A DNA stretch of 28,423 bases from Candidatus Dormibacteraceae bacterium. Its GTDB lineage: Bacteria; Chloroflexota; Dormibacteria; Dormibacterales; Dormibacteraceae. Position 1 is the stretch's first letter; every line of letters starts with the position of its first letter. The translations under genes and the position numbers were made by a program. Shown one piece after another: positions 1 through 24,329 of this stretch. The stretch covers positions 1 through 28,423 of the forward strand of contig JBGPOC010000001.1 in assembly GCA_041487825.1 (NCBI GenBank), in the 5' to 3' direction. Below the pieces are notes generated by a model. The model worked only from the letters and a program-made list of their open reading frames with translations, did not search any database and was not told where the DNA came from.

Positions 1-393
1 AGCGAAGAGGACCGCAAGAGCATCATCTGGGGCCGCCACGTCACCGGGCACCCGATCGAGTACGACTACCACGACGGCACCGGTTTCGTCGGCACGGATC
101 TGAACATGGGGCCGCCGCCCTACCCGCTCGAGTACATCCTGCGCGACGCCGTCGGCCCGGAAGGCCAGTTCCACGGGAACGTCGGCCACGAGACCTCGGT
201 CATCGTCGACTACCCGTTCATCACGGGTCGCTCGACGGCGGACTCGGTCCTCACCGGCAAGATGCTGGTCGAGGTCCTGGAGGAGGGACGCCTGTACTAC
301 GGATGGCGGGGGCCTGACCGCGTCGGGACGCCGCAGGTGCCCAAGGCCACCAAGGCCAACGGGCGCAAGGTACCGGTCGCCGCCGGCTCATAA
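1..393 (+). CDS. DJ-1/PfpI (type 1 glutamine amidotransferase-like) protein, 5'-truncated by the window edge
   Basis: Frame 1 is open from base 1 (SEEDRKSIIWGRHVTGHPIEYDY...). 'GRHVTGH' and 'VIVDYPFITGRSTADS' resemble the C-terminal half of DJ-1/PfpI proteins (G+xVTG ... VvvDgxlITgr). The catalytic Cys region is outside the window. Confidence 0.6.
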   Translation, partial: SEEDRKSIIWGRHVTGHPIEYDYHDGTGFVGTDLNMGPPPYPLEYILRDAVGPEGQFHGNVGHETSVIVDYPFITGRSTADSVLTGKMLVEVLEEGRLYYGWRGPDRVGTPQVPKATKANGRKVPVAAGS

Positions 394-401
394 GGCACCC
401 G

Positions 402-2144
402 ATGGTCGTCCAGGATCAGAATGCCGCCGCTGCCGGAGCGGTGGCGCCCCGGCCGGGCCGTTACGCGCTCTTCGAGCAGCTGCGCGCCGACGGCTTCAAA
501 TTCATGTTCGGCAACCCGGGGACGGTCGAGCAGGGCTTCCTGGACACCATCGGTGAGTTTCCCGACATCTCGTACATCCTGGCGCTGCAGGAGACGATCG
601 CCGTCGGGATGGCCGACGGCTACGCCCGCGCGGCGGGCCGGCCGGCCATCGTCCAACTGCACAGCGGAGTCGGGCTCGGCAACGGGGTCGGCATGCTGTA
701 CCAGGCCAAACGCGGGCACGCGCCGCTGATCGTTTTCGCGGGGGAATCGGGCGTCGTGTACGACGCTATGGACGCCCAGATGGCGTCCGACCTCGTCGCG
801 ATTGCCCGCCCGGTGACCAAGTGGGCCACGCGCGTCGTTCACCCGTCATCGCTGCTGCGGGTCATCCGCCGAGCCATCAAGATCGCCAGCACGCCGCCGA
901 TGGGGCCGGTCTTCGTCGCTTTGCCGATGGACGTGCTCGATGACGTCACCACCGAGGCGGCCGTCCCGACCTCCATCCCGGTGACGCAGGTGGCGCCCGC
1001 CGCGGCCGAGATCGAGCAGGCGGCCCGCCTGCTGGCCCATGCGAAACGCCCCCTGGTCATCTTCGGCGACGGGGTCGCCTTCTCCGGCGGCCAGCGAGAG
1101 CTGGTGGCGGTGGCGGAGGCGCTTGGCGCCGACGTCTGGGGGGCCGACTGCTCGGAGATCAGCATGCCGAGCTCCCACCCCCAGTACCGCGGCCAGCTCG
1201 GCCACATGTTCGGGAGTCACAGCGGGCCGATCGTCGGCGCGGCCGACGCGATTCTCGTGGTCGGAACGTATCTCCTGCCCGAGGTCTTTCCGAACCTCGA
1301 GAGCATCTTCGCCCGTGACGCATCCGTGGTCCACGTCGACCTGGACGCCTACGAGATAGCCAAGAACTTCCCCGTCGATCTCGGCCTGGTCGCCGACCCG
1401 GCAGCCACCTTGCGAGCGCTGCTGCCGGCCCTGAAGTCGGCGATGAGCCCGGACGACATCGCCGGTGCAGCCTCGCGCCGAACCGCCGCAGGCGCGCGTC
1501 GAGACGACGAGGACAAACAGGCAGAGGCGGCCGACGCGGCGGCCTGGGACCAGACGCCGATGCGCCCGGCCCGCTTCATGAGCGAGCTCGCGAAGCGGCT
1601 CGGCCCGAAGAGCGTGATCTTCGACGAGGCGCTGACCAGCTCGCCCGACCTGACGCGGTACCTGTCCCCGGACCAGCCCGGCGGTTACTACCAGACAAGA
1701 GGCGGCTCGCTTGGCGTAGGCATCCCGGGCGCGATCGGCGCCAAGCTCGCACATCCGGAGCGGACCGTCATCGGCTTCACGGGAGACGGCGGGAGCATGT
1801 ACACGATCCAGGCGTTGTGGACAGCCGCCCACCACGGGATCGGCGCCAAGTTCGTCATCTGCAACAACGGCAGCTACAAGCTGCTGAAGCTGAACATCCA
1901 GCAGTACTGGCGGGAGCGCGGCATGCCCGAGCACGACTTCCCGGCGTCCTTCGACCTACTGAAGCCGGAGATCAGGTTCGACCTGATGGCGCAGTCGATG
2001 GGAGTCGGGTCGGTGCGGGTCGAGCGCCCAGACCAGATCGGGCCCGCGCTGGACGCAGCGCTGGCGGACGACAAACCGTTTCTCATCGATCTCGTCCTGA
2101 CGGACGAGGTTGCCGGGCACGGACACGTGCGTTGCGGTCAGTAA
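402..2144 (+). CDS. Thiamine diphosphate-dependent enzyme, benzoylformate decarboxylase/acetolactate synthase-like
   Basis: 580 aa. FGNPGTVE N-terminus, LQETIAVGMADGY (catalytic Glu), QLHSGVGLGN, RGGSLG and the GDGGSMY...CNNGSY ThDP/Mg motif. Confidence 0.9.
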   Translation: MVVQDQNAAAAGAVAPRPGRYALFEQLRADGFKFMFGNPGTVEQGFLDTIGEFPDISYILALQETIAVGMADGYARAAGRPAIVQLHSGVGLGNGVGMLYQAKRGHAPLIVFAGESGVVYDAMDAQMASDLVAIARPVTKWATRVVHPSSLLRVIRRAIKIASTPPMGPVFVALPMDVLDDVTTEAAVPTSIPVTQVAPAAAEIEQAARLLAHAKRPLVIFGDGVAFSGGQRELVAVAEALGADVWGADCSEISMPSSHPQYRGQLGHMFGSHSGPIVGAADAILVVGTYLLPEVFPNLESIFARDASVVHVDLDAYEIAKNFPVDLGLVADPAATLRALLPALKSAMSPDDIAGAASRRTAAGARRDDEDKQAEAADAAAWDQTPMRPARFMSELAKRLGPKSVIFDEALTSSPDLTRYLSPDQPGGYYQTRGGSLGVGIPGAIGAKLAHPERTVIGFTGDGGSMYTIQALWTAAHHGIGAKFVICNNGSYKLLKLNIQQYWRERGMPEHDFPASFDLLKPEIRFDLMAQSMGVGSVRVERPDQIGPALDAALADDKPFLIDLVLTDEVAGHGHVRCGQ

Positions 2145-2169
2145 GTCAGAAGCGAATAGGGAGGGACGG

Positions 2170-2928
2170 TTGAGCGATTTTCAAGGCAAAGTAGCGCTGG
2201 TCACAGGTGGTGGCTCGGGTATCGGGCTGGCGACAGCGGTGATGCTAGGCAAGCGTGGTGCGCGAGTCCTGGTCACCGAGCGCAACCAGGAGCATGGCGA
2301 CTCGGCGGTCAGGACCATAGAGGAGGCGGGCGGCAACGCCAAGTTCTTCCGTGCCGACCTCACCAAGAAGGAAGACATCGACGCGCTGTTCGAGCACATC
2401 GGTGAGAGCTATGGGCGCCTCGATTGCGCCTTCAACAACGCCGGCATCGCGGGCGAGCTGCAAGCGACCGCCGACGTCACCGAAGACGACTGGGACATCG
2501 CGATGAACATCAACCTGAAGAGCGTCTGGCGCTGCATGCGCCACGAGATCAAGATCATGCTGGCCGAAGGCAAGGGCTCGATCGTGAACACCGCCTCGGC
2601 CGCCGGTCTCGTCGCCCTTCCTGGGGCGGCCGCCTACGTCGTCGCCAAGCACGGGGTCGTCGGGCTGACCAAGAACGCGGCCATCGAGTACGTCAAGCAG
2701 GGCATTCGCGTCAACGCGGTCTGCCCCTCGTTCGTGGGCACGCCCCTGACGGGCGCGGTCAACGCCAAGTACCCGGACTTCGTCGCGCACGCGTTCCAGC
2801 TGCAGCCGATCGGCCGCGTGGGCACGCCGGACGAGATTGCCGAGACCGTTTGCTTTCTGCTCTCGGACGCCTCGTCGTTCACGACCGGGGCGATGATCTC
2901 CGCCGACGGCGGATACGTGGCGCAGTGA
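2170..2928 (+). CDS. Classical short-chain dehydrogenase/reductase
   Basis: TTG start at 2170 after AGGGAGGGA. TGGGSGIG, NNAGI, N-T-A-S, YVVAK (YxxxK), NAVCP and DGG motifs. Confidence 0.92.
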   Translation: MSDFQGKVALVTGGGSGIGLATAVMLGKRGARVLVTERNQEHGDSAVRTIEEAGGNAKFFRADLTKKEDIDALFEHIGESYGRLDCAFNNAGIAGELQATADVTEDDWDIAMNINLKSVWRCMRHEIKIMLAEGKGSIVNTASAAGLVALPGAAAYVVAKHGVVGLTKNAAIEYVKQGIRVNAVCPSFVGTPLTGAVNAKYPDFVAHAFQLQPIGRVGTPDEIAETVCFLLSDASSFTTGAMISADGGYVAQ

Positions 2929-2974
2929 TGAAGACAAATTCGAAGACGAGTTCCACAGAGATGGGAGGTTGCTG

Positions 2975-3823
2975 ATGCCGACGATCACCCGAGTGACCGG
3001 TGAGTTCCCGGTCTACCCAGACCACGTGCATGCCTACATCATCGAGTTCGAGAAGTCGGTGGTCATCGTCGACGGGATGTTCGCGCTCTCGAACGCGAAG
3101 GGCCTCCGCAAGCATGCCGAGACGACCGGCAAGAAGATCGAAGCCGTGGTGATCACGCATGGCCATCCCGACCACTGGCTTGGGCTGGCGGCGTTCCCGG
3201 ACATCCCCAAGCACGCCACCCAGGCGTGCATCGACTTCATGCACCGCGAAGACGACGCCAAGCACGAGGTCGCCAAGGCCATGCTCGGCGCCGACTTCCC
3301 GGAGCCGCGCGTATACCCCGACGTGGTCATCAAGGACGGGCACACGCTGAACATCGAGGGCCATTCGCTGAGGTTCATCGACCTCGGTCCAGGCGAGTCG
3401 GACGCGGATGGGTGCTGGGTCATCGACATCGACGGCCAGACGAACGCGTTCGTCGGCGACTCGATCATGAACCGCACTCACGGCTTCTTCGGCGACGGCC
3501 ACGTGTACGAGTGGCTGAAGCTGCTCGACCGGCTGGAGCTGGAGCTGCCCGACGCGAAGTACCACATAGGCCACGGCATCACTCCGGCGGACAAGGCGTC
3601 GATCGAATGGATGAAGGGCTACATCAAGCACTTCATGAAGACGCTGAAGGCGATCGGGCCGAACGTGCCCAACGACGACGCGCTGCGTAGTCGATTGGTC
3701 GCCTGGCAGCAGGAGTACCTGCCCGGCAACGAGTTCCTGTTCCTGACCACGTTCGAGCTGGAGCGCGGGGTCAACCGGATTCGCGCCGCGATGGCGGCCC
3801 AGCCGGCCGGAACCACGGCCTGA
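2975..3823 (+). CDS. Metallo-beta-lactamase-fold hydrolase
   Basis: ATG 2975 with GGGAGG at 2963-2968. THGHPDH (HxHxDH), FVGD and IGHG metal-ligand motifs. Confidence 0.88.
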   Translation: MPTITRVTGEFPVYPDHVHAYIIEFEKSVVIVDGMFALSNAKGLRKHAETTGKKIEAVVITHGHPDHWLGLAAFPDIPKHATQACIDFMHREDDAKHEVAKAMLGADFPEPRVYPDVVIKDGHTLNIEGHSLRFIDLGPGESDADGCWVIDIDGQTNAFVGDSIMNRTHGFFGDGHVYEWLKLLDRLELELPDAKYHIGHGITPADKASIEWMKGYIKHFMKTLKAIGPNVPNDDALRSRLVAWQQEYLPGNEFLFLTTFELERGVNRIRAAMAAQPAGTTA

Positions 3824-3857
3824 GCCGCAACCAACAATCCCAAGGAGAGTCGAAACC

Positions 3858-4301
3858 ATGACCGAGACCATCCAGGCGCTCACCGACCAGGAGGTCGAGA
3901 AGCTTGCGCGCGACTGGTATCACGCGCTCGACGTTCACGTGCCCATCGAGCAGCTGTGGCCGATGCTGGCCACCGAAGGATTGAGTTTTGTCTTTCCCGA
4001 GGGCGAGCGGAACGGCGTCGAGGGGTTCAGTGTCTGGTACGAGGCCGTCACGCACCGCTTCTTCGACGAGGTGCACACGGTCAAGCAGGTGAAGTCGAAG
4101 CCAAGCGGAAACGGCGCAGACGTCTCGGTGGTCGTCAACTGGCAGGCGAAGATCTGGGACGCGCCCGAGGCCAAGAGCAAGTGGCTGGGATTCGACGCCT
4201 ACCAGACCTGGGTCGTCACCCGGGGACCGGCGGGAACTCCCGTGATCCAGAAGTACGTCGTCGACTCGCTCAAGCCGATGGAGGGCTCAGCCTCCCTGTG
4301 A
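3858..4301 (+). CDS. NTF2/SnoaL-like protein
   Basis: AAGGAG RBS, 147 aa. An N-terminal helix (LARDWYHALD) is followed by a beta-rich pattern typical of the NTF2 fold. Confidence 0.7.
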   Translation: MTETIQALTDQEVEKLARDWYHALDVHVPIEQLWPMLATEGLSFVFPEGERNGVEGFSVWYEAVTHRFFDEVHTVKQVKSKPSGNGADVSVVVNWQAKIWDAPEAKSKWLGFDAYQTWVVTRGPAGTPVIQKYVVDSLKPMEGSASL

Positions 4302-4690
4302 GCACGAAGATCCGGACCACGCGCGAGGTCGTCGACGAGTATTACCAGGCTGTAAACACCGGCAACTGGGATGCCTGGCTTGCGCTCTTCAACGAGACCG
4401 TGAAGATGGACGAGCAGCTCGCGGGCCACGTCGTCGGCGCGGCGATCCTGCGCGGAGCGGTCGGCGGCCTCAAGAAGGGCTACTCCAAGTTCCTGATGCA
4501 CCCGCAGAAGATCGTCGTCGACGGCGAGTCGGCGGCGGTGATCTGGCACTGCGAGGCCGCCAACGCGGCCGGCGTGCCGATCGACGCGATCGGCGCCAAC
4601 TACTTCGAGGTGGTGGGCGGTTACATCACCTACGTCCGCACGATCCACGACACGGTGCCCTTCAAGCCGTTCACCGATCAGAAGCTGTAG
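4298..4690 (+). CDS. NTF2/SnoaL-like protein
   Basis: GTG start overlapping the upstream stop (GTGA), 130 aa. REVVDEYYQAVNTGNWDAWLALF...IVVDGESAAV...NYFEVVGGYITYVR matches the SnoaL_2 pattern. Confidence 0.75.
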   Translation: MSTKIRTTREVVDEYYQAVNTGNWDAWLALFNETVKMDEQLAGHVVGAAILRGAVGGLKKGYSKFLMHPQKIVVDGESAAVIWHCEAANAAGVPIDAIGANYFEVVGGYITYVRTIHDTVPFKPFTDQKL

Positions 4691-4694
4691 TCAG

Positions 4695-5288
4695 ATGGGA
4701 AACAACCTGAAGGGCCGCAAGATCGCGATCCTGATCGAGAGCGACTACTACGAGCCCGAGATCCATTACTACCAGCACCGGTTCGCTGAGGAGGGTGCTG
4801 AGGTTCACTTCATGAGCCGCCTCTGGGGCAACCCCAAGTTGACCTTCCTCGGCCACGAGGCGCGCATGCCTTTCGAGTGCACCGAGAGCTTCGAGGGCAT
4901 CGACGACGCCGAGCTGGCGACCTACGCCGCGGTGATCGTCCCCTCGGGCATGGTCTCCGACCGCCTCCGTTATACGGAGGACGTCACGAAGCTGCCGCCG
5001 GCCACCGAGTTCCTGCGTCGCGCCTTTGCCAACCCGAAGGTGCTCAAGGGCATCATCTGCCACGGCATGTGGCTGGTCGCCCCGACTCCTGAGCTCGTGC
5101 GCGGCCGCCGCGTCGTCGTGCACAACAACCTCCACGGGGACGCCGTGAACATGGGGGCCGTCTACGTGAACGAAGACGTTGTCGTCGACGGTGACCTGGT
5201 CACCGCCCGCACCGGCGCACACTGCCACCTCCTGGCCGGCAAAATGATCGAGCTGCTGGCCCAGCGCGCTCCCGTGGGGGCCGTCTGA
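4695..5288 (+). CDS. DJ-1/PfpI family protein
   Basis: KIAILIESDYYEPE (conserved Glu), ICHGMWL nucleophile elbow (Cys-His), VVVDGDLVTAR. Confidence 0.87.
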   Translation: MGNNLKGRKIAILIESDYYEPEIHYYQHRFAEEGAEVHFMSRLWGNPKLTFLGHEARMPFECTESFEGIDDAELATYAAVIVPSGMVSDRLRYTEDVTKLPPATEFLRRAFANPKVLKGIICHGMWLVAPTPELVRGRRVVVHNNLHGDAVNMGAVYVNEDVVVDGDLVTARTGAHCHLLAGKMIELLAQRAPVGAV

Positions 5289-5720
5289 GTGGCGGCGACA
5301 ACCTTCTCGCACATCGCCATCACCTGCGCGGACCCGCTGGCCATGGAGCGCTGGTACACGCGGCACTTCGGCTTTCGTCGTGCTCGTGTCTACGCGCCAG
5401 GGGCCGGCCAGGTCGTGATGATCAAGCGTGGCGACCTGTACCTGGAGCTCTTCCCCAAATCGAAGGAGGCGCCGGCGCCTCCGGCCGGCGCCGACGGTGC
5501 GGGTTACCCGGGCTGGCGGCACCTCGCGTTCCTGGTCGACGACCTCGACGCCAAGCTGGCCGAGATGGGCGACGACGCCCACATCAACCTCGGCCCGCTC
5601 GACATGGGCGCGTTCATCCCGGGCATGAGCTCCGTCTGGCTGGCCGATCCGGAGGGCAACGTCGTCGAGCTCAACCACGGCTACGTCGACGAAGCCGAAC
5701 CACCGGCGTTGGACGCATGA
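5289..5720 (+). CDS. VOC family protein (glyoxalase I/epimerase fold)
   Basis: GTG immediately follows the upstream TGA. Four metal ligands are present: SHIA, LELF, RHLAF and NVVEL. Ends with the DPEGNVVE motif. Confidence 0.88.
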   Translation: MAATTFSHIAITCADPLAMERWYTRHFGFRRARVYAPGAGQVVMIKRGDLYLELFPKSKEAPAPPAGADGAGYPGWRHLAFLVDDLDAKLAEMGDDAHINLGPLDMGAFIPGMSSVWLADPEGNVVELNHGYVDEAEPPALDA

Positions 5721-7858
5721 GCGCGGTCGACCCGGGCGTCCGACCCCCCTCTACCGGCAAACCGGCCGATCCCCTCGGCCCGACGATGCACCTGGTCGAG
5801 AACGGCCGCACGCACCCGCTCGGCGCCAGCCTCGACGCCCAGGGCGTGAACTTCTCTGTGTGGAGCGAGTTCGCCACCGGGGTCGAGCTTCTCCTGTTCC
5901 AGCACCACGACGACCTGGACCCGTACCAGGTCATCAAGCTGAACCCGAAGTTCAACAAGACCTTCCAGTTCTGGCACTGCTACGTCCGGGGCGTCAAGGC
6001 GGGAACCTTCTACGCCTTCCGGGTGGATGGCCCCTGGGACCTGGTGGCCGGCCAGCGCTTCAACCGCAACAAGGTCCTAATCGACCCGTACGCGCGTGCC
6101 ACCAACAGCTACCTGTGGAATCGTGGGGACGCGTGCGGTCCCGCGGACAACGTGCACACGTCGCAGCGCTGTGTCGTCGTCGACGAGAGCTACGACTGGG
6201 AGGGCGACCAGCCCCTGAACAGGCGCATGAGCGAAACGATCATCTACGAGATGCACGTGGGCGGCTTCACCAAGTCGCCGACCTCAGGCGTCGCTTATCC
6301 AGGGACCTTCGCCGGCGTGATCGAGAAGATCCCCTATCTGAAGGAGCTGGGCATCACCGCCGTCGAGGTGCTCCCGGTGTTCGACTTCGACCCGCACGAG
6401 ATCGACAAGCCGAACCCCGCGGGCGGCACCAACCTGAGCAACTACTGGGGATACAGCACAGTCAGCTTCTTCGCGCCTCATTCCCGCTATTGCGTCTCAC
6501 CGAGCTCAGGTACCCACCAGCGCGAGTTCCGCAACATGGTCAAGGCCCTTCACGAGGCGGGCATCGAAGTGATCCTCGACGTGGTTTTCAACCACACGAG
6601 CGAGGGCAACCACGAGGGCCCGATGATCAACTTCAAGGGTTTCGGGAACAGCACCTACTACTACCTCTGGCCGCCCGACCACCAGTTCTACATGGACTAC
6701 TCGGGGTGCGGCAACACGCTCAACTGCAACCACCCGATCACCGAGAAGATGATCATCGAGTGCCTCGAGTACTGGCACGAGGAGATGCACGTCGACGGCT
6801 TCCGCTTCGACGAAGGCTCGATCCTGTCCCGCGGGCCGGACGGCGCGCCGATGTCCTACCCGCCGGTTCTCTGGCACATCGAGCTGTCGGAGAAGCTGGC
6901 CGACTGCAAGATCATCGCGGAGGCCTGGGACGCGGCAGGCCTGTACCAGATCGGCTACTTCCCAGGTTTTCGCTGGGCCGAGTGGAACGGGATGTACCGG
7001 GATGGGGTGCGCCGCTTCGTGCGCGGGGACCGCGGGATCGTCGGCCTCATCGCGTCCCGCATCGCCGGCAGCGCTGACATCTACGAGCACAGCGGCCGCT
7101 TGGCCGTCAACAGCATCAACTTCATCACCTGCCACGACGGGTTCACCCTCAACGACGTGGTCAGCTACAACCACAAGCACAACGATGCCAACGGCGAAGG
7201 CAATCGCGATGGCAACGACCAGAACGACAGCTGGAACTGCGGCATCGAAGGCGAAACCGACGACCCGGAGGTCGAGGCGCTTCGACGCCGCCAGATCAAG
7301 AACTTCGCCGCGATCCTGCTGCTCTCGCAGGGCGTGCCGATGATCACGTCCGGAGACGAGGTGAGGCGAACGCAGCACGGCAACAACAACGCCTACTGTC
7401 AGGACAGCGAGCTCAGCTGGTTTGACTGGACGCTGGTGGAGAAGAACCAGGACCTGTTCCGCTTCTTCAAGCAGATGGTCAAGCTCAGGCGCCAGACCGG
7501 CGCCCTGCACCGCGTGCGATTCCTGCGCGGCGAGGTCAACGAGCGCGGGCTCCACGACATCGAATGGCACGGCTGCAGCCTCAGGTCGCCCGGGTTCGGC
7601 GACCCCTCGTCGGGGGTGCTCGCATTCACGATCGGCAACATGGTCGGCCCGGGCCCGGACCTCCACGTCGTGCTCAACATGGAAGACCAGGAGCTCGATT
7701 TCGAAACTCCGCCGATGACTGGTCGCAGCTGGTATCGACTGGTCGACACGTCGCAACCGAGCCCCGCCGACTTCTGCGACCCCGGAGACGAGGTTGCGGT
7801 CGCCGGCAACAGCATCAAGGCGGCCCCGCGCAGCGTGGTCGTGCTGATCTCAAAGTGA
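5717..7858 (+). CDS. glgX: Glycogen debranching enzyme/isoamylase (GH13, CBM48 N-terminus)
   Basis: ATGA overlap. GVNFSVWS, IIYEMHVGGFT, NYWGY, DVVFNHT, DGFRFD, AEAWD, NFITCHDGFTL, QGVPMITSGDE and NNNAYCQD motifs. Confidence 0.93.
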   Translation: MSAVDPGVRPPSTGKPADPLGPTMHLVENGRTHPLGASLDAQGVNFSVWSEFATGVELLLFQHHDDLDPYQVIKLNPKFNKTFQFWHCYVRGVKAGTFYAFRVDGPWDLVAGQRFNRNKVLIDPYARATNSYLWNRGDACGPADNVHTSQRCVVVDESYDWEGDQPLNRRMSETIIYEMHVGGFTKSPTSGVAYPGTFAGVIEKIPYLKELGITAVEVLPVFDFDPHEIDKPNPAGGTNLSNYWGYSTVSFFAPHSRYCVSPSSGTHQREFRNMVKALHEAGIEVILDVVFNHTSEGNHEGPMINFKGFGNSTYYYLWPPDHQFYMDYSGCGNTLNCNHPITEKMIIECLEYWHEEMHVDGFRFDEGSILSRGPDGAPMSYPPVLWHIELSEKLADCKIIAEAWDAAGLYQIGYFPGFRWAEWNGMYRDGVRRFVRGDRGIVGLIASRIAGSADIYEHSGRLAVNSINFITCHDGFTLNDVVSYNHKHNDANGEGNRDGNDQNDSWNCGIEGETDDPEVEALRRRQIKNFAAILLLSQGVPMITSGDEVRRTQHGNNNAYCQDSELSWFDWTLVEKNQDLFRFFKQMVKLRRQTGALHRVRFLRGEVNERGLHDIEWHGCSLRSPGFGDPSSGVLAFTIGNMVGPGPDLHVVLNMEDQELDFETPPMTGRSWYRLVDTSQPSPADFCDPGDEVAVAGNSIKAAPRSVVVLISK

Positions 7859-7869
7859 AGAGGAAGAAG

Positions 7870-10104
7870 ATGGATCAACAACTGACCTGGACGTTCTCGG
7901 ACACCATCGCCGGCTACGTGACCACCGCTGACGTGCCGAACAAGAAGTTCGGGCTCAAGACGACCGACGGACGCGAATTCGAAGTCCATCTGACGCCCGC
8001 CACCTATGCGGAGGTGACGCGCAACCTCGGGGAGCCTTTCCAGGATCCGGGCTCCCCTCTCGAGACGCTGCTCACTCCCGACCGGTACCTGTTCGCCTAC
8101 GGCATCTTCTACCCGGAGCAGGGGGAGCTGCGGTTCGAGGCCAAGCGGCTGATCCTCACTGGCCGCGGCGAGCACGAATTCCGGGCCGAGGCCGCCGCCT
8201 GGTGGGTCGACCAGGTCCGGCAGCTCGCCGAGTTCTATTACAACGCCCAGTTCGCCAACGGAATCGTCGACTATCGCAACTACCGCACTCACCTGACCCT
8301 CGAGGGAAAGCAGATCGAGTCGACCAGGCAGGAGACGGACACGATCTCGCGCATGGTCTATGGATTCGCCACCGCCTACCTTCTCACCGGCGAGGACAAG
8401 TACCTTGAAGCAGCCGAGAAAGGCACCGAGTACCTGCGGGACCACATGCGCGCGGTCGACGAGAACGAGGGAATCGTCTACTGGTACCACGCCATGGACG
8501 TGCGGGGCGGGCGCGAGAGGAAGATCCTGGCCTCGCAGTTCGGCGACGACTACGACGCGATTCCGGCCTACGAGCAGATATATGCCCTGGCGGGCCCGAT
8601 CCAGACTTACCGGGTCACCGGGGATCCGCGCATCCTGCGCGACGCCGAGATGACTGTGGAGCTCTTCGATCGGTTCTTCAAGGACAAGGAGAAGGGCGGC
8701 TACTTCTCGCACATCGACCCGGTCGACTTCGACCCGCGCGCCGAATCCCTCGGCATGGACCGAGCCCGCAAGAACTGGAACTCTGTGGGCGACCACGCGC
8801 CTGCGTACCTGATCAACCTCTACCTTGCGACGGGTGAGGAGAAGTACGCCGACTTCCTCGCCTACACCGCGGACACCATCGAGGAGCGGTTCCGGGATTA
8901 CAAGCACAGCCCGTTCGTGCAGGAGAAGTTCTTCGAAGACTGGAGCCATGACTCCAAGTGGGGTTGGCAGCAGGATCGCGGCGTGGTCGGCCACAACCTA
9001 AAGATCGCCTGGAACCTCCTGCGCATCCATCACCTGCGCCCTCACGACAAGTACGTCGCATTCGCGCGCGAGATCGCCCGCATCATGCCAACCATTGGCA
9101 TGGATCGCCAGCGCAGCGGCTGGTACGACGTGATGGAGCGTCGCAAGGAAGAGGGTCAAGAGTGGCATCGCTACGTCTGGCACGATCGCAAAGCGTGGTG
9201 GCAGCAAGAGCAGGCCATCCTTGCCTACCTGATCATGCATGGGTCTCTCAAGGACCCCGAGTACCTGCGCCTGGCTCGTGAATCGGTCGCTTTCTACAAC
9301 GCGTTCTTCCCAGACCACGACAACGGCGGCGTTTACTTCAACGTCCTCGCCACCGGGGTTCCGTACCTGGAGGGCACCGAGCGGCTGAAGGGCAGCCACT
9401 CGATGTCCGGCTACCACTCCTTTGAGCTCTGCTACCTGGCGGCGATCTACACCAACCTGCTGATCACGCACCAGCCGATGGACTTCTACTTCAAGCCACA
9501 GCCGGGCGCTTTCAAGGACAACGTGCTTCGCGTCGCCCCAGACCTGCTCCCGCCGGGCAGCATCAGGATCGAGAGCGTCACCATCAACGGCGCCAACTGG
9601 ACCGAGTTCGACGCGGATGCGCTTACCGTCAACCTCCCGACGCTCGGGACCGAGGACCATCCGCTCGAGAAGCGGCCGGGCTGGGCCGGCAATCCCCAGC
9701 TGGCTTCGATCGCGACCCGAGAGCTGAAGATCAAGGTCAGGATCGTGCCTTCAGCGCTACTCTTCGACGCTTTCCTCAACATCGTTGACGGCACCGCGGA
9801 GCTCACCCTCGTCGGGGAGCTCAGCGACGCGGCCGAGCCCGCTTTCCGTGCTGAGCTCGACCGGCTCATCCCGGCCCGCCCGAAGCGGGTGGTGATCCGC
9901 GTGGAGAACCTGCGCACGATGTCCAACCGGTCTGCGCGCGCGCTCGACTTCGTGAGCGGCAAGCTCGCGCTGGACGACGACATCTACGTGGTGGGCGCCA
10001 ACGACGCGGTGAAGCGAACCCTCCAGGACGTTGGCATCTGGGAGGAGTTCAGGGCCATGGACACCTACGATTTAGCGGCCTTGACCGCGAAGTCGGAGGC
10101 CTAG
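7870..10104 (+). CDS. AGE/cellobiose 2-epimerase-like (alpha/alpha)6 barrel protein with an N-terminal extension and a C-terminal STAS domain
   Basis: ATG 7870 after a purine-rich stretch, 744 aa. GHNLKIAW, KAWWQQEQAILAY and GYHSFELCY resemble AGE-family motifs. The last ~115 aa (LTLVGELS...LDRL...KRVVIRVENLRTMS...VVGANDAVKRTLQDVG) follow the STAS pattern. Confidence 0.8.
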   Translation: MDQQLTWTFSDTIAGYVTTADVPNKKFGLKTTDGREFEVHLTPATYAEVTRNLGEPFQDPGSPLETLLTPDRYLFAYGIFYPEQGELRFEAKRLILTGRGEHEFRAEAAAWWVDQVRQLAEFYYNAQFANGIVDYRNYRTHLTLEGKQIESTRQETDTISRMVYGFATAYLLTGEDKYLEAAEKGTEYLRDHMRAVDENEGIVYWYHAMDVRGGRERKILASQFGDDYDAIPAYEQIYALAGPIQTYRVTGDPRILRDAEMTVELFDRFFKDKEKGGYFSHIDPVDFDPRAESLGMDRARKNWNSVGDHAPAYLINLYLATGEEKYADFLAYTADTIEERFRDYKHSPFVQEKFFEDWSHDSKWGWQQDRGVVGHNLKIAWNLLRIHHLRPHDKYVAFAREIARIMPTIGMDRQRSGWYDVMERRKEEGQEWHRYVWHDRKAWWQQEQAILAYLIMHGSLKDPEYLRLARESVAFYNAFFPDHDNGGVYFNVLATGVPYLEGTERLKGSHSMSGYHSFELCYLAAIYTNLLITHQPMDFYFKPQPGAFKDNVLRVAPDLLPPGSIRIESVTINGANWTEFDADALTVNLPTLGTEDHPLEKRPGWAGNPQLASIATRELKIKVRIVPSALLFDAFLNIVDGTAELTLVGELSDAAEPAFRAELDRLIPARPKRVVIRVENLRTMSNRSARALDFVSGKLALDDDIYVVGANDAVKRTLQDVGIWEEFRAMDTYDLAALTAKSEA

Positions 10105-10122
10105 CGACAGTATTGGTGGATT

Positions 10123-10168
10123 GACCCGGCGGCTTGGGGGCCCCGACACCCTCCAGGCCGGCCGGGTC
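10123..10168. terminator. GC-rich hairpin between convergent genes, probable bidirectional terminator
   Basis: GACCCGGC-GGCTTGGGGG pairs with CCCTCCAGGCC-G-GCCGGGTC (about 18 bp with one bulge and GU pairs). No U-tract. Confidence 0.6.
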
Positions 10169-10178
10169 GCCTGGCCGT

Positions 10179-10466
10179 CTACAGCTCCTTGGTTTCTACG
10201 GCCTCGACGATGCGTGCCTGGGGGTTTCTCATCACTCGCTGGCCGTCTCCGGTGCTCCAGACCCGGCGCATGGTGGCAAGGAGCCCCTCCGCCTCGTCCA
10301 AAGTGTCGAACTCGAGGTCGATCATGACGTAGTTGGGATCCTCAACCGACCGCAAGACTCGGTAGCGGCGAACACCTGAACCTTTGCGGTCGGCAGGATC
10401 GCTGTCAAAAGCTTGCTTCCAGCTGTCGAAGTCCGGAACGGCATGTTCAATCCGCAGGATTGGCAT
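10179..10466 (-). CDS. Small hypothetical protein, probable dimeric alpha+beta barrel
   Basis: AGGAG RBS, 95 aa. The H-x-V-x-DFDSWK..FD ... V.IDLEFD..EA pattern is typical of small ferredoxin-like barrel proteins. Confidence 0.7.
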   Translation of the reverse strand: MPILRIEHAVPDFDSWKQAFDSDPADRKGSGVRRYRVLRSVEDPNYVMIDLEFDTLDEAEGLLATMRRVWSTGDGQRVMRNPQARIVEAVETKEL

Positions 10467-10605
10467 CTAGCTCCTAAGTTTGCGCCATCTGCCCTGCCTT
10501 GACCGGGGCGCCGCCCGGACGCCGGTCTGAAACGTAACCCTCCATTCCCATGGCCTGGGGACCGTGCCTCAGCATGGCGACTTCTCGCGGTGCCTCGGTT
10601 ACACC

Positions 10606-12534
10606 ATGAGCATGGGGCGGAATGCTCTTCAAGCCGACCTGCCCGCTTCCAGGACCCTGGTTGAGATCCCGGGCGCGGCCCTCGAGACGGACGTCCGGGT
10701 GGCGCCGCCGAGGTTCTCGGTGCTCCCGACGGGCCCAGTCGATGAGCTTGGCCGTACCCGCAAGAACGTTCGGTTTGGCCGGATCGCCGGCTGGCTCGGG
10801 TCTCGCAGGGCATCTACCCTGCTCGCGTTCCTGGCCATCTTCACCATGGGGCCCCTCATCCTGCTCTCCGCCCTGAGCGTCAACTCGACCTATTCGACGC
10901 TCACCCAGGCTGCCAAGGTGAGGCTCGCCGACGCGAGCGCTCTGGTCTCCGTCTACGTCAACGCCACCATGTCTGCCCGCGCAGACCTGGAAGACTCCTA
11001 CGCCGCCCGGCGTTCGCTGATCGCTGCACTGAAGGACGGCAACCACGTCAACTACGACAAGCCTGTCATCCTCGATGCCCTCTCCGGAATCCGGGCCATC
11101 CAATCGGACACCCGGTTCGCCGGCATCGTCGACGCCGCAGGCACGTATTGGGGCGACCAGGACCCGGTGGGGCCGGCAAGCGCGCTCGGACAGAACTTCA
11201 GCGCTAAGGATTGGTACCAGGGCACCGCCAGAACGGGTGTGGCTTACGTTTCGGCTGCGTATGTGTCAGCCGACCAGGGCGCTCCTCTCGTAGTCGCGAT
11301 CGCCGATCCCGTGAAGGCGGATGGGCGCTATGCGCCGGCCGGCCAGGTCGTCGGGATCCTCGTCGTCGGCTACGAGCTCAACACCACGCAGCGGCTGTTC
11401 TCCGATTTCGCCCGTGATCGCGGCGTGTTGGTAGAGGTGACAGATCAGAAAGGGACAGTTGTGGCGGGCGGCGGGGCCGTTCCCACGCGGCTCGTGCAGG
11501 ACACGAGCGCAGGCGTGGCCGGCGCGCTCAAAGGCAAGAGCTCTATTGCTTCCGTGAGCAGCAACGGCCAGGATGCTTTCGCGGCATATTCGCCCGTCGC
11601 CGACATCGGCTGGACCGTCGTGACGAGCGTGCTTGCTTCCGTCGCTCTCGCCGATGCCAACCGCCTGCGAGCGTACGTGGTCGGCATCACGATTGTCCTT
11701 CTGGCGCTCTTGGCCGCAGCCAAGCTCACCGTGTACCTGGTCTTCCGCGACCGGCAGGCGATCAACATGGCCCTGACCGGAGCGAACAGTGGCCTGTACC
11801 AGAAGGTGGTGGCCCGGACCGCGGAGCTCGAGGCGAGCAATCGCGAGCTCGAGGCCTTTAGCTACAGCGTCTCTCACGATCTCCGGAGCCCGCTGCGGGC
11901 CATCGACGGGTTCTCTCGCCTGATGCTCGAAGAGGAGCGCGCGGGGCTCTCGTCAGAAGCAGCCAGGAGGCTCGGTCTCATTCGTGCCGGCGCCCAGCAG
12001 ATGGGAAGCCTGATCGACGATCTGCTCAGCTTCTCGCGGCTCGGCCGCGTGGAGCTGAAGAAGCGGCGTGTCTACACCACCGACCTCGTCAACGAGGTGA
12101 TGGGCGAAATCAAGCTGGAGAGTCCCGAGCGGCACATCGATTTCGTGGTTGGGGATCTACCCCCTTGTCACGCTGACCCCGTCCTGCTGAAGCAGGTGTT
12201 CAGGAACCTTCTGGGTAACGCCGCGAAGTTCACTCTCCCGCGCCCCGCCGGGCGCATCGAGGTTGGTGGCATCGCAAGCACGAATGAATCGAAGGGAATG
12301 GTCACCTACTTCGTCAAGGACAACGGCGTCGGCTTTGACATGCGCTATAGCGACAAGCTCTTCGGGGTGTTTCAGCGCCTGCACCGGATGGAGGACTTCC
12401 CCGGCACGGGTGTCGGGCTCGCCCTGGTCAGACGAATCGTCGAACGTCATGGCGGAAAGGTCTGGGCCGAAAGCGTAGTGGATGCGGGAGCGACCTTCTA
12501 TCTAACTCTGGAGGACGGAAATGCAAGAACCTGA
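10606..12534 (+). CDS. Membrane sensor histidine kinase with a Cache-type extracellular domain (start uncertain)
   Basis: Two TM segments flank a Cache-like region (KDWYQ...YVSAAYVS...VAIADPV). H-box [14 protein letters not shown]-box [15 protein letters not shown] and GTGVGL. Confidence 0.9.
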
Positions 12535-12970
12535 AGCGGTCGAAATCCTGCTGGTCGAGGACAACCCGAATGACGTCGAGCTCACGCTCCACGCCCTGAG
12601 GGCGAGCCGCCTGGCCAATGACATCAAGGTCGTGCGCGATGGGGCAGAGGCGCTCGACTTCATCATGTGCCGAGGGCCTCACGCCGACCGCGACATCAAC
12701 AGCGGCCCCAAAGTGATCCTGCTCGACCTGAAGCTGCCCAAGATCGACGGGATCGAAGTCCTGCGCCAGACCAAGGGTGATCCGCGGACGAAGATGATCC
12801 CGATCGTGGTCCTGACCTCATCGGCGCAGGACCGAGACATCGTCGAAAGCTACGAGCTCGGCGTCAACAGCTACATCACGAAGCCGGTCGACTTCCAGCA
12901 GTTCACGGAGGCGGTGCACAACCTGGGCCTCTACTGGCTCGTCTACAACCAGCCACCGCACAAGGTCTGA
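12521..12970 (+). CDS. Stand-alone response regulator (receiver only, Rcp-like)
   Basis: LLVEDN, LLDLKLP (phospho-Asp), VLTSS and YITKP. Overlaps the kinase stop. Confidence 0.92.
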
Positions 12971-12972
12971 AG

Positions 12973-14928
12973 TTGCAGGCTCCCCTTCGCGTCCTGATAG
13001 TCGAAGACGTCCCCACCGACGCTGAGCTCATGTGCGCCCAGCTCCGGCGGAGCGGACATACCGTCGACTGGACGCGCGTCGACACGGAGTCGGCGTTTCG
13101 ATCCGCCTTGAATGAGCGGTTCGACGTGGTGCTGAGCGACTGCAGCCTGCCCAGCTTCAGCGCATCCCTCGCTCTCCAGATCGTCCGTGAATCCGGCCTG
13201 GACGTGCCCTTCATCGTGGTTTCCGGCACAGTCGGCGAAGAGACCGCGGCTGGGCTCATGCGTGAGGGCGCGGCGGACTACGTCCTGAAGGACAGGCCCA
13301 GCCGGCTCGGCATGGCCGTCTCCAGGGCGATGGCCGAGGCGGAGGTGCGGCGCGACCGTGAGCGCGCCCTCGACGGACTCCGACGCTCGGAGGCCCGTTT
13401 CCGCGCCCTGTTCGAATCCAACGTGATCGGGATCATCGTGGCCGACCGCGCCGGGCGGATCGTGGAGGCGAACAGCTACTTCCTCTCGATGGTCGGTCGC
13501 CCCCTCCGGGACCTACCCATGGATTGGGCGGCGATGACCCCCGATGAGTTCAAGTCGAAGGACCGCGAGGCCCTGAACGAGCTGGAGCTCCACGGCCGGG
13601 CCACACCGTGGGCGAGTGAATTCCTGGACGGGGACTCGAACCGGGTGCCGATCCTGATGGGAGGCGCAAAGCTCCCTGATGACACCATGGTTTGTTTCGT
13701 CGTCGACATGACCGAGATGAAGGCGGTCCAGGCCAATCTCGAGCAGGCGAAATCACAGCTCGAGGACGCGATCAATCAACTCAAGCAGACCCAGGACACG
13801 GTCATCGCCGAGGAGCGCCTGCACGCCCTCGGGCAGATGGCCGCGGGCATCGCTCACGACTTCAACAACTACCTCAGCCCGATCATCGGGCTCAGCGAGC
13901 TCATCCTCACACGGCCGCGTCTGATCGATGAGCACGAAAAGGTCCTCAAGTTCCTGCGCGCGATCCACCAGGCGGGCCTGGACGCCGCCCTGGTGGTGCG
14001 ACGTCTGCGCGAGTACTACCGCACCGCGGATGTCGACGACCAGGTGGAGGTGATCGATCTCAAGCAGGTGGTCGAGCAGACCATCGAGCTGACCCAGTCC
14101 AGGTGGGGCGACCAGTCGCAGTCCACGGATGCGAGATACCGCATCACGACCAACCTGCAGAGCGCCGGCGTGTCGGGTCGCGCCTCGGAGCTTCGCCAGA
14201 TGCTGGTGAACCTGATCTTCAATGCCCTTGACGCGATGCCGAACGGAGGGGAGCTCTCCCTGACGATCGAGTCCGACGCCGAGCGGCCCGCAATCGTCCA
14301 CCTCGAGGTGAACGACACCGGCGTCGGAATGACTCCCGAGGTTCGGAAGCGCTGCCTCGAGCCCTTCTTCACCACCAAGGGGGCATCCGGCACCGGGCTG
14401 GGGTTGGCGACCGCGTACGGGATAGTCAAGCGCCATCACGGCGACATCCAGATCGAGAGCGAGGTTGAGCAGGGCACCCGCGTCGTCATCACGCTCCCCA
14501 TGGTCCCGATGGACAGCCTGGTGTCCACACCGAAGCAGAAGAGCCGGACGCCGGCCATGCACATCCTTGTGGTCGACGACGAAGAGATGGTCCGCAACGT
14601 GCTTGCCGAGTACCTGCGGGTGGACGGGCACGATGTGGACCTGGCGGAAGGCCCCACGGTCGGGCTCCGCATGATCAACGATGGACAGTACGACCTGATC
14701 ATCACCGATCGGGCCATGCCCGAGATGAGCGGCGACCAGCTCGCGCTCAAGGCCAAGCAGATGGCGCCGCATGTTCCGATCCTCATGCTGACCGGATTCG
14801 GCGACTTCATGATCGCGAAGGGAGAGCATCCAACCGGCGTGGACGCGGTGATAGGCAAGCCGATCACCATCGACGCCTTGCGCGAAGCGATCGAGGACGT
14901 CACGGTGGCGCGAGTCCCGGTTTCCTGA
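12973..14928 (+). CDS. Hybrid sensor kinase REC-PAS-HisKA-HATPase-REC
   Basis: TTG start 2 nt after the upstream stop. N-terminal REC (VEDV, LSDC, VLKD), PAS-like segment, H-box IAHDFNN, NLIFNALDAM, DTGVGM, GTGLGL and a C-terminal REC (VDDE, ITDRAMP, IGKP). Confidence 0.9.
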   Translation: MQAPLRVLIVEDVPTDAELMCAQLRRSGHTVDWTRVDTESAFRSALNERFDVVLSDCSLPSFSASLALQIVRESGLDVPFIVVSGTVGEETAAGLMREGAADYVLKDRPSRLGMAVSRAMAEAEVRRDRERALDGLRRSEARFRALFESNVIGIIVADRAGRIVEANSYFLSMVGRPLRDLPMDWAAMTPDEFKSKDREALNELELHGRATPWASEFLDGDSNRVPILMGGAKLPDDTMVCFVVDMTEMKAVQANLEQAKSQLEDAINQLKQTQDTVIAEERLHALGQMAAGIAHDFNNYLSPIIGLSELILTRPRLIDEHEKVLKFLRAIHQAGLDAALVVRRLREYYRTADVDDQVEVIDLKQVVEQTIELTQSRWGDQSQSTDARYRITTNLQSAGVSGRASELRQMLVNLIFNALDAMPNGGELSLTIESDAERPAIVHLEVNDTGVGMTPEVRKRCLEPFFTTKGASGTGLGLATAYGIVKRHHGDIQIESEVEQGTRVVITLPMVPMDSLVSTPKQKSRTPAMHILVVDDEEMVRNVLAEYLRVDGHDVDLAEGPTVGLRMINDGQYDLIITDRAMPEMSGDQLALKAKQMAPHVPILMLTGFGDFMIAKGEHPTGVDAVIGKPITIDALREAIEDVTVARVPVS

Positions 14929-17661: not shown

Positions 17662-18216
17662 TTATCGCCTCTTGGGCTTGGGTCCGGTTGCGCGTCGCCC
17701 TGGAGCGGCCGGGCTCTTGGGGCGGCCGGCGGCCGACGGCTGGGCGGATTTCTGCTTCGCGACACTCGAGATCAACAGGATGGGGCGCTTTGAGTGCAGC
17801 ACCAGCTCGTGGCTCACGCTGCCGAGAACCAGCTCAGCGACGCCGCCCCTGCCCCTGCGGCCGACCACGATGACGTCGGCATCGAGACTGTCGGCAACCT
17901 GAGCGATCACCGAGGCTGGGCGGCCGTCCTCCATGATCGTCCGGTATCGAACGCCCGCGTCCTTCAGCGGCTTGATCCACTGAAGCTCGAACTCCTTCTT
18001 CATGCCTTCACGCCACTCCGGGTCGAACTGGGGCGGCGCGACGGGGGCAAAGTACGCACCCTCGAAGTAGACCGGCGGAGAGATTGCAAAGACGGCGATC
18101 ACCTCGGAACCCATTCCCTTGGCCATCCGCACCGCCCACCCGAGAGCGGCTGCCGAGTGCTCGGAGCCATCCACGCCGACGACGATCCGACCGATGCCTG
18201 AAACCTTGGTCGCCAT
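17662..18216 (-). CDS. Universal stress protein (UspA family, ATP-binding type) with a basic tail
   Basis: IVVGVDGS and a G-2X-G-9X-GS motif (GRRGRGGVAELVLGS). AGGAG RBS. Confidence 0.92.
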   Translation of the reverse strand: MATKVSGIGRIVVGVDGSEHSAAALGWAVRMAKGMGSEVIAVFAISPPVYFEGAYFAPVAPPQFDPEWREGMKKEFELQWIKPLKDAGVRYRTIMEDGRPASVIAQVADSLDADVIVVGRRGRGGVAELVLGSVSHELVLHSKRPILLISSVAKQKSAQPSAAGRPKSPAAPGRRATGPKPKRR

Positions 18217-19190: not shown

Positions 19191-19230
19191 GGCGGTGTTG
19201 AAGGCCGAGCCGCGGACCGGCGCTTCCGGC

Positions 19231-24141: not shown

Positions 24142-24329
24142 CCGGCGGAGTGTTCCACAGATTGGCCCTGCGGCGGGCGGCGGTCGGCGGCCCAGGTATC
24201 CCATCCCGACGAGTGTCAGAACACATCGACACGCGATTTCGGCCCAGTCAGTCGACGGATCGCGGAGCGCTGGACCATGATCTACATGCCAATGCTCGAG
24301 AGCAGTGAGGTGGCGCCGAGGCCGGCAGG

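Follow-up and report, generated by a model that had tools for sequence, protein, structure and literature searches.

Gene content and organization of the operon

The DNA analyzed here (the window, 28,423 nt) is the entire contig C1 of a metagenome-assembled genome of a Candidatus Dormibacteraceae bacterium (GCA_041487825.1; 330 contigs, 62.5% complete, approximately 65% G+C). Its first 10,104 nt are occupied by a predicted operon in which a gene for a GlgX-type enzyme of glycoside hydrolase family 13 (GH13) is followed by a gene for an AGE-fold protein fused to a STAS domain (AGE-STAS), apparently a variant of the cyanobacterial icfG-type cluster. Near-identical DNA was found in sediment metagenomes and in one hot-spring metagenome; all the matching runs listed were of DNA and none of RNA. 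Domains were assigned with Pfam and NCBIfam models, and the following features were identified (ThDP, thiamine diphosphate; SDR, short-chain dehydrogenase/reductase; MBL, metallo-beta-lactamase-fold hydrolase):

1-393, + strand: C-terminal 130 residues of a ThiJ_like/DJ-1-superfamily protein of about 301 residues, truncated by the contig end and recognized by its match to a copy on contig C112
402-2144, + strand: ThDP-dependent enzyme, benzoylformate-decarboxylase-like (TPP_enzyme_N/M/C; GDG...NN motif)
2170-2928, + strand: classical SDR oxidoreductase, lineage-specific member (adh_short_C2, 1.4e-68; TGxxxGxG and YxxxK intact)
2969-3823, + strand: MBL (Lactamase_B, 2.7e-14; HxHxDH motif)
3858-4301, + strand: NTF2-like protein of putative dehydratase/eliminase type, cluster-specific family (gene 5; structure model and Foldseek)
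4298-4690, + strand: SnoaL_2/NTF2-like protein (PF12680, 1.5e-12)
4695-5288, + strand: DJ-1/PfpI protein, core member (PF01965, 4e-17; Cys122 of ICHG present)
5289-5720, + strand: VOC (glyoxalase-fold) protein (PF00903, 1.2e-9)
5717-7858, + strand: GlgX-type GH13 enzyme with CBM48, putative accessory, cluster-linked paralogue (CBM_48 and Alpha-amylase; TIGR02100)
7870-10104, + strand: four-part AGE-STAS protein of 744 aa (N-terminal beta domain, AGE-fold (alpha/alpha)6 barrel, beta-rich module, C-terminal STAS)
10122-10168, + strand: GC-rich hairpin 3' of the AGE-STAS stop codon, probable operon end (inverted repeat GACCCGGC/GCCGGGTC)

All ten open reading frames (ORFs) lie on the + strand and together span positions 1-10104; the operon begins at the contig end, so that its first gene is truncated. 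The junctions are short throughout: 8 nt between the ThiJ and ThDP genes, 25 nt between ThDP and SDR (counted from a TTG at 2170 behind a GGGAGGG site), 40 nt between SDR and MBL, 34 nt between MBL and NTF2, a 4-nt overlap (GTGA) between NTF2 and SnoaL, 4 nt between SnoaL and DJ-1, 0 nt between DJ-1 and VOC, a second 4-nt overlap (ATGA) between VOC and GlgX, and 11 nt between GlgX and AGE-STAS. These figures match the ten co-oriented genes with minimal gaps that a preliminary description of this DNA had reported. The strong closing hairpin that it had also noted was recovered: region 10105-10185, after the last stop codon, folds at -43.3 kcal/mol (z = -2.5), with the main stem at approximately 10122-10168, though no U tract stands behind it. 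A simple intrinsic-terminator scan and a sigma-70 promoter scan gave no match on the + strand. A convergent ORF of 95 aa follows the hairpin.

Catalytic signatures are kept throughout the operon (GDG...NN, TGxxxGxG with YxxxK, HxHxDH, the DJ-1 Cys elbow and GH13 regions I-IV), and no signal-peptide-like N-terminus was found among its proteins. No glgA, glgC or glgP gene was found in the operon, as the preliminary description had stated, and this glgX is not linked to other glg or tre genes. Judged by its gene spacing and orientation, the set of ten genes forms a genuine, tightly packed operon.

Conservation of the cluster among bacteria

A survey was made of 80 loci encoding AGE-STAS homologues, each with 10-kb flanks, in which the presence of each family was scored by tblastn. 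According to the labels of the locus records these loci come from approximately 11 phyla: Dormibacterota, Chloroflexota, Actinomycetota, Cyanobacteriota, Abditibacteriota, Acidobacteriota, Bacteroidota of the Chlorobi/Ignavibacteria type, Pseudomonadota, Planctomycetota, Nitrospinota and, for one locus, Bacillota. AGE was present in 80/80 loci and a GlgX gene adjoined it in 75. DJ-1 was found in 54 loci, VOC in 27, ThiJ in 21, and ThDP, the GMC oxidoreductase and the gene-5 NTF2 family in 20 each. A response regulator fused to Pyr_redox_2 occurred in 36/80 loci, an SDR of the cyanobacterial type in 19, and a GH63-like protein and a MIP channel in 12 each. All-against-all clustering of the ORFs of the 80 loci, used to count recurring neighbours, added a histidine kinase with a cNMP-binding domain (32 loci), LtrA (21), a CMD-family protein (14) and a bestrophin-like protein (10).

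The preliminary description had named conserved co-occurrence as one of the points on which its proposal could fail; the adjacency of GlgX and AGE in loci of so many phyla bears out the linkage. Besides DJ-1 and VOC, the pairs and triplets ThiJ+ThDP and NTF2+SnoaL+GMC recur as modules whose internal order is fixed, while their position relative to the core shifts; in some loci (L020, L021, L073, L090) they lie even on the opposite strand. Linkage that survives rearrangement argues for shared function. At the genome level, 9 of 201 Chloroflexota genomes sampled encode AGE; the gene-5 family was found in 4 of these, each time within about 14 kb of AGE, and was absent from all 192 genomes without AGE (hypergeometric p ~4e-5 with the centre genome left out; related genomes are not independent observations).

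As far as gene order and content can tell, the genes are a conserved functional unit and not a chance neighbourhood. The constant core consists of the GlgX-type GH13 enzyme, the STAS-tied AGE-fold protein and the DJ-1 protein, to which the SDR and MBL are lineage-specific additions.

The cluster is modular and spreads horizontally. AGE-STAS was not found in 40 relatives of the organism, including 15 of the same genus, and in a translated comparison synteny with a 93%-complete genome of that genus begins only at about position 10780, for which reason the cluster is best described as an accessory island, an insertion or loss polymorphism. The downstream synteny takes in a histidine kinase, a response regulator and a hybrid kinase. 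These genes (a dCache histidine kinase, a single-domain response regulator and a PAS hybrid kinase; 10564-14928, + strand) were considered as regulators of the cluster and rejected, being syntenic in a same-genus genome that lacks it.

In a Chloroflexia genome, two genes for proteins with RRXRR and HNH endonuclease domains are inserted between GlgX and AGE (L085:8677-9970), an interruption resembling a mobile element. In the closest full-form loci the cluster and its MFS transporter gene are directly followed by a reverse-transcriptase gene (RVT_1; L087:13736-14839 and L088:13374-14678), as would fit a mobile region. In 32-36 loci (for example cyanobacterial L058:12415-15575) AGE-STAS is followed by a receiver-thioredoxin-reductase-like fusion and a cNMP-binding histidine kinase, often with LtrA next; the receiver-flavoprotein fusion and this kinase may represent an alternative regulatory module to a kinase/phosphatase pair.

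The GlgX-type enzyme is a cluster-linked paralogue

The window GlgX scores 710.6 bits against TIGR02100 (cut-off 640.9) and has GH13 regions I-IV intact, with the catalytic triad in the motifs GFRFD, AEAWD and CHD. It is 59-68% identical to other cluster-linked copies and 44-45% identical to canonical copies (from genomes G043 and G044). Its identity to the GlgX of split-type cyanobacterial icfG clusters, in which the AGE and STAS genes are separate, is 45-48%, similar to the canonical figure. In same-genus relatives without the cluster a different GlgX is found, with a TIGR02100 score of about 1000 bits, and the window copy is for this reason assigned, on its sequence, as an accessory, cluster-linked paralogue and not the housekeeping debrancher. 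In Synechocystis, debranching is reported to be the work of GlgX1; the GlgX2 encoded in the cluster was inactive in vitro, its knockout gave no phenotype, and its function was termed elusive by the authors (bioRxiv 10.1101/2022.11.21.517384, preprint 2025). Both the lower profile score and these results make it doubtful that the operon mobilizes glycogen, as had been proposed.

These data also bear on an interpretation as housekeeping glycogen catabolism, in which GlgX would be the normal debrancher beside unrelated genes. The score above the TIGR02100 cut-off agrees with it, as do the two Chloroflexia genomes in which the cluster-linked copy is the sole GlgX above cut-off and the presence of glgB elsewhere in the window. 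Against it stand the distinct GlgX of the same-genus relatives, the adjacency of GlgX and AGE across phyla and the lack of glgA, glgC and glgP in the operon, and we regard it as very improbable.

The glgB gene, the sole other glycogen gene in the window, is encoded on the other strand some 16-17 kb away from the operon (26113-28008, - strand) and is split into two adjacent ORFs, of which 26692-28008 corresponds to model positions 2-429 and 26113-26679 to positions 435-618. The split represents a frameshift, a stop codon or a sequencing error.

The AGE-STAS protein

The AGE-STAS protein matched GlcNAc_2-epim and STAS in Pfam. More than 4600 homologues were scored in the database search, the closest 89% identical, and the homologues of the 80 loci are 55-77% identical across phyla. 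In Foldseek searches its structure model (pLDDT 72) matched glucose-2-epimerase, mannose isomerase, cellobiose 2-epimerase and YihS at 15-20% identity, the barrel giving E values of about 1e-8 to 8h1l, 5x32, 3wkf and 2rgk; the STAS part matched SpoIIAA and RsbS with a TM of 0.8. More than 200 columns of AGE are invariant among 20 sequences from several phyla. By profile alignment its GHNLK motif falls onto GHNSE of the solved glucose-2-epimerase 8h1k: His375 is kept, and the Glu position is taken by an invariant Lys378. A candidate for the second His, H516, is invariant but lies beyond the aligned stretch.

In the STAS domain, the window has MSNRSARAL; the corresponding stretch of split STAS proteins is MASAGLRVL or MSSAGLRML. 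At the canonical phospho-serine position the window has Asn, and the residue differs among members of the fused family, although the Ser before it is conserved; the window thus lacks the combination of a phosphorylatable Ser at this position and a nearby cognate kinase gene. Split and fused forms of AGE and STAS both occur in cyanobacteria.

Elsewhere in the assembly, contig C279 (L133) carries a STAS gene (1054-1353, - strand) and an RsbW-like kinase gene (606-968, - strand), divergent from a gene for a response-regulator-PP2C phosphatase (1441-2619, + strand). This is the only canonical partner-switching module found in the assembly, and its STAS and the AGE fusion are the only STAS domains found there.

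A form of the cluster with SDR and MBL in place of GMC

In several lineages the cluster has a full form with the order ThiJ-ThDP-NTF2-SnoaL-GMC-DJ-1-VOC-GlgX-AGE::STAS, sometimes followed by an MFS transporter. These operons (L085, L087, L013 and L081, from Chloroflexota, Dormibacterota, Actinomycetota and Acidobacteriota) share with the window the same families, order and translational coupling, and their proteins are 55-84% identical to those of the window. They differ in having a GMC gene between SnoaL and DJ-1, whereas the window has SDR and MBL between ThDP and NTF2; in the window the SnoaL-DJ-1 gap is 4 nt and holds no GMC gene. Nor was a GMC orthologue found elsewhere in the 62.5%-complete genome.

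The SDR-MBL arrangement without GMC is a rare form; it was also found in an independent metagenome contig (P0005), whose AGE is 81% identical to that of the window, and it begins on contig C112 too. Because of these two further occurrences, the arrangement is assigned, from gene order, to a lineage variant and not to an assembly artefact. Locus L090 has the MBL alongside a GMC-containing version. Among the 80 loci GMC and SDR are almost mutually exclusive, a split that mostly separates cyanobacteria from other phyla.

The GMC proteins of the relatives are nearest to a bacterial alcohol oxidase, a chloramphenicol-oxidizing enzyme, choline oxidase and pyridoxine 4-oxidase, not to pyranose oxidase, and they score under the cut-offs for choline dehydrogenase and MftG. 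A search for a GMC/pyranose oxidase had been proposed in the preliminary description. The expectation of a GMC protein proved correct in that the clusters of relatives regularly include one; it did not hold for the type of enzyme, which is choline/alcohol-oxidase-like, or for the window, from which the gene is absent. One oxidoreductase step may be needed that can be filled by an enzyme of either cofactor type, GMC or SDR, and in a sediment organism the change to an NAD(P)-dependent SDR would suit scarce oxygen.

Contig C112 (L002:1-3914) carries a second copy of the ThiJ-ThDP-SDR genes, with 84% identity at the DNA level and 96% for the ThiJ protein. At this divergence, the contig represents either a second, paralogous cluster or DNA of a related species that was binned with this genome. 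Two ORFs upstream of its ThiJ gene (147 and 212 aa) were judged spurious, being of low complexity and without relatives, and a 166-aa ORF on this contig proved unrelated to the divergent SnoaL_2 gene of L087.

Other proteins encoded in the operon

The fragment encoded by gene 1 gave no Pfam match itself, but shares 96% identity with residues 173-301 of the complete 301-aa copy on C112, which matches PF17124 and PF01965 and keeps the nucleophile-elbow Cys in AAECYG. In 20-21 of the 80 loci this ThiJ_like family forms a pair with the ThDP gene. The ThDP enzyme scored 319 bits against the NCBIfam BFD model, under the cut-off of 493; its nearest solved structures are benzoylformate decarboxylases (E ~1e-64). 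The SDR reached 221 bits against the glucose-1-dehydrogenase subfamily model NF005559 (cut-off 215) and is only 37% identical to the SDR of a cyanobacterial icfG-type locus; the corresponding value for DJ-1 is 35%. The MBL, which is also found in the clusters of L090 and P0005, scored 24.7 bits against the GloB model (cut-off 200.8). For the MBL and ThiJ-like proteins only remote solved relatives were found. VOC scored 35 bits against a cut-off of 140, and the PfpI value for DJ-1 was 67 bits against 139.

Gene 5 gave no Pfam match, and comparison with the SnoaL family by hhalign returned a probability of 0.07, that is, no similarity. Its structure model (pLDDT 92.8) has a clear NTF2-like fold, with top Foldseek matches, at a TM of 0.74, to LinA, a putative scytalone dehydratase and ketosteroid-isomerase-like proteins; the sole match of the family profile to PDB sequences was a designed NTF2 (E 0.09). 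Residues D25, H27 and H73 are invariant in the family, and D25 and H73 may correspond to the Asp25-His73 dyad of LinA. The model assigns gene 5 to an NTF2 fold of the dehydratase/eliminase type. Gene 6 is a SnoaL_2 protein by Pfam, and in full-form loci its place is invariably between the gene-5 family and the GMC gene. The two SnoaL proteins of the preliminary description are thus upheld for gene 6, and for gene 5 at the level of the fold but not of the profile.

Possible function of the cluster

The interpretation that we favour, at slightly less than an even chance, is a stress-linked carbonyl route for the breakdown or detoxification of a glucan-derived sugar, and not the synthesis of a specialized metabolite. 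The GH13 enzyme would free or trim an oligosaccharide derived from alpha-glucan, the reducing-end sugar of which would be opened and isomerized by the AGE barrel and then converted to a keto- or aldehydo-sugar by an oxidoreductase (GMC in most genomes, the SDR here). The two NTF2-fold proteins might catalyze elimination of water and tautomerization, and the benzoylformate-decarboxylase-like ThDP enzyme might cleave or ligate the resulting dicarbonyl, while the two DJ-1-superfamily proteins, VOC and MBL would dispose of reactive 2-oxoaldehyde, thioester or lactone products. The STAS domain would tie the enzyme to carbon- or stress-status signalling. This order of reactions was inferred from the known chemistry of the GMC, SDR, NTF2 (LinA, scytalone dehydratase, ketosteroid isomerase), ThDP and DJ-1/VOC/MBL families. 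A link to stress is suggested by the recurring neighbours LtrA, aquaporin, CMD, the receiver-thioredoxin-reductase-like fusion and the cNMP-binding kinase, and also by the repression of the corresponding Synechocystis operon by salt (PMC8670252).

Several observations weigh against this interpretation. The GMC of relatives resembles primary-alcohol oxidases and not sugar oxidases. Many loci hold the core alone, so that the accessory enzymes are dispensable for the role of the core. By analogy with the inactive GlgX2 of Synechocystis, the first step may not be glycogen debranching, although this inactivity need not transfer to the window GlgX, the identity to that type being only 45-48%. Replacement of the Glu of GHxxE by Lys in AGE would leave isomerase activity not assured. 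VOC, MBL and DJ-1 all score far under the curated cut-offs for glyoxalase systems, with their folds, catalytic Cys and metal motifs present.

A more specific scheme, possible but rather unlikely, would have the cluster encode a previously undescribed, non-phosphorylative route distributed over at least 11 phyla, consisting of isomerization of an alpha-glucan-derived sugar by the Lys-variant AGE, oxidation, dehydration by the cluster-specific NTF2 protein and cleavage by the ThDP enzyme, with STAS coupling the flux to stress signalling and the SDR replacing GMC in this sediment lineage under low or no oxygen.

In a serious, though unlikely, alternative to the carbonyl route, AGE::STAS would be mainly a sugar sensor in partner switching of the RsbV/RsbW type, GlgX a binding or regulatory partner, and the small enzymes co-regulated stress proteins that share no pathway. 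Proteins of the DJ-1, SDR and ThDP (pyruvate oxidase) types are likewise found in the general-stress regulons of Bacillus and E. coli. In addition, the STAS fold is well preserved, and the STAS/RsbW-like kinase/phosphatase module on C279 could provide the partner. Agreement with such a role comes also from Synechocystis, where STAS proteins of the cluster are substrates of the Slr1861 kinase, itself also an anti-SigC factor, and where icfG mutants have carbon- and glucose-regulation phenotypes (PMC12329169), and from the inactivity of GlgX2 in vitro (bioRxiv 10.1101/2022.11.21.517384). However, the phosphorylation site is replaced by Asn in the window, and in 76/80 loci no kinase/phosphatase was found within 10 kb. 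The GH-motif catalytic His and the many invariant columns of AGE fit an enzyme, as does the intact catalytic triad of GlgX. The fixed order of NTF2-SnoaL-GMC and ThiJ-ThDP, together with an NTF2 family found only with AGE, exceeds what generic co-regulation of stress genes would give.

The preliminary description had proposed dedicated biosynthesis, with conversion of a glycogen-derived sugar into a specialized small molecule along the lines of the anhydrofructose/ascopyrone/microthecin pathways. Conservation of the cluster, a GMC oxidoreductase at the equivalent place in relatives, the resemblance of the NTF2-type protein to dehydratases and the transporters beside some clusters (MFS in L087, a MIP channel in Nostocales) are compatible with this idea. 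The searches that it called for gave a different picture: no PF01055 match, and hence no GH31 glucan lyase, was found in the 62.5%-complete genome, and neither a lyase of that kind nor an aldos-2-ulose-dehydratase-like family recurs near the cluster in the 80 loci. The GMC is of the choline/alcohol-oxidase kind and absent here, no typical tailoring genes of secondary metabolism (transferases, ligases, aminotransferases) are present, half of the accessory genes encode folds of the detoxification type, and the core stands alone in many genomes. Nothing points to a specialized product, the analogy has lost its defining enzymes, and we consider biosynthesis improbable.

The GlgX paralogue and AGE-STAS make up one of the more widely conserved pairs of genes to which no function has been assigned, carried by soil, sediment and crust bacteria as well as by model cyanobacteria. 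The comparison of loci yields a list of partner enzymes and a set of natural variants (STAS fused or split, kinase/phosphatase present or absent, GMC versus SDR and MBL) that lead to testable biochemistry. If the carbonyl route is true, it would newly connect the use of storage glucan with the way in which reactive sugar carbonyls are dealt with under stress or in dormancy.

Other genes of the window

Further downstream, a gene for a bacterial eRF1-like protein (baeRF family 10) overlaps one for an AMIN-like domain protein (18384-19830, + strand), with a universal stress protein gene just upstream on the other strand (17662-18216). A GH1 beta-glucosidase is encoded at 22915-24204 (- strand) and an adenylate kinase at 24330-24902 (+ strand). 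Several ORFs between 19.9 and 22.8 kb had no family match.

Comparison with known systems

With canonical GlgX (of the E. coli type, and Synechocystis GlgX1, slr0237) the window enzyme shares the GH13 and CBM48 domains, the catalytic Asp/Glu/Asp and a TIGR02100 score above cut-off; it differs in its identity of only 44-45% to canonical copies and in its score of 710 bits, against about 1000 in relatives. The likeness to the anhydrofructose pathway is conceptual only, namely the passage of an alpha-glucan-derived sugar through a keto-sugar, dehydration and tautomerization, whereas the GH31 glucan lyase, aldos-2-ulose dehydratase and pyranose oxidase of that pathway were not found here.

Inositol catabolism proceeds by dehydrogenase, dehydratase and ThDP-hydrolase steps. 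As in myo-inositol catabolism (IolG, IolE, IolD), a dehydrogenase, a dehydratase-type protein and a ThDP enzyme are encoded together in the window, which would suit cleavage of a cyclic 1,2-dicarbonyl derived from a sugar or polyol. The resemblance is an analogy only: no window protein is homologous to IolG, IolE or IolD, and the dehydratase candidate has an NTF2 fold.

The closest precedent is the icfG cluster of Synechocystis sp. PCC 6803, described in Beuf 1994 and Shi 1999, as reported through PMC12329169 and PMC8670252. The salt-repressed operon slr1852-1862 encodes Slr1855, of the N-acetylglucosamine 2-epimerase family, the anti-sigma antagonist Slr1856, a GlgX and IcfG (PMC8670252). The genes slr1856 and slr1859 encode STAS proteins, slr1857 an isoamylase, slr1860 the IcfG phosphatase and slr1861 the kinase of the cluster STAS proteins, and it has been proposed that the operon acts as a hub in which the anabolism and catabolism of carbon are balanced (PMC12329169). 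Cyanobacterial locus L120 has the order published for slr1855-slr1861, namely AGE (606 aa, no STAS), STAS, GlgX, STAS, GAF-PP2C and RsbW-like kinase, preceded by genes for an EthD-SnoaL protein, an SDR, DUF4432 and DJ-1. The window AGE is 64% identical to the split-type AGE of L120 over residues 5-591, L120 being matched to Synechocystis by gene order only. A separate lead, lti2/OrrA in Anabaena, could not be tied to the cluster.

Both clusters have an AGE gene adjoining a GlgX-type gene with a STAS domain, and DJ-1, SDR and SnoaL-type genes upstream; the enzymes are uncharacterized in both. In the literature searched, no biochemical characterization of the enzyme set was found, nor a paper assigning chemistry to Slr1852-1855 or their homologues. 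The claim that no characterized pathway has this composition therefore stands as regards biochemistry, but not as regards precedent, which is provided by the enzyme part of the cyanobacterial icfG-type cluster. The icfG cluster differs in having a separate STAS gene and the order AGE-STAS-GlgX, whereas GlgX precedes AGE in the window, and in having a second STAS, an IcfG-type PP2C and an RsbW-type kinase. None of these three is present in the window, where no RsbW/SpoIIAB-like kinase or IcfG-type PP2C gene was found, and a kinase and phosphatase lie within the cluster in only 4 of the 80 loci. The window in turn has ThiJ, ThDP, VOC and MBL and lacks the EthD and DUF4432 of the cyanobacterial locus. 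The two also differ at the STAS phosphorylation site, which is Asn in the window, and in GlgX, at only 45-48% identity.

The window AGE::STAS joins in one gene what in L120 are two adjacent but separate genes, and by its gene content the cluster is assigned as a STAS-fused, kinase- and phosphatase-less form of the icfG-type cluster. The cluster is known genetically and has been studied for signalling, not biochemically, and the window contains a distinct variant of it.

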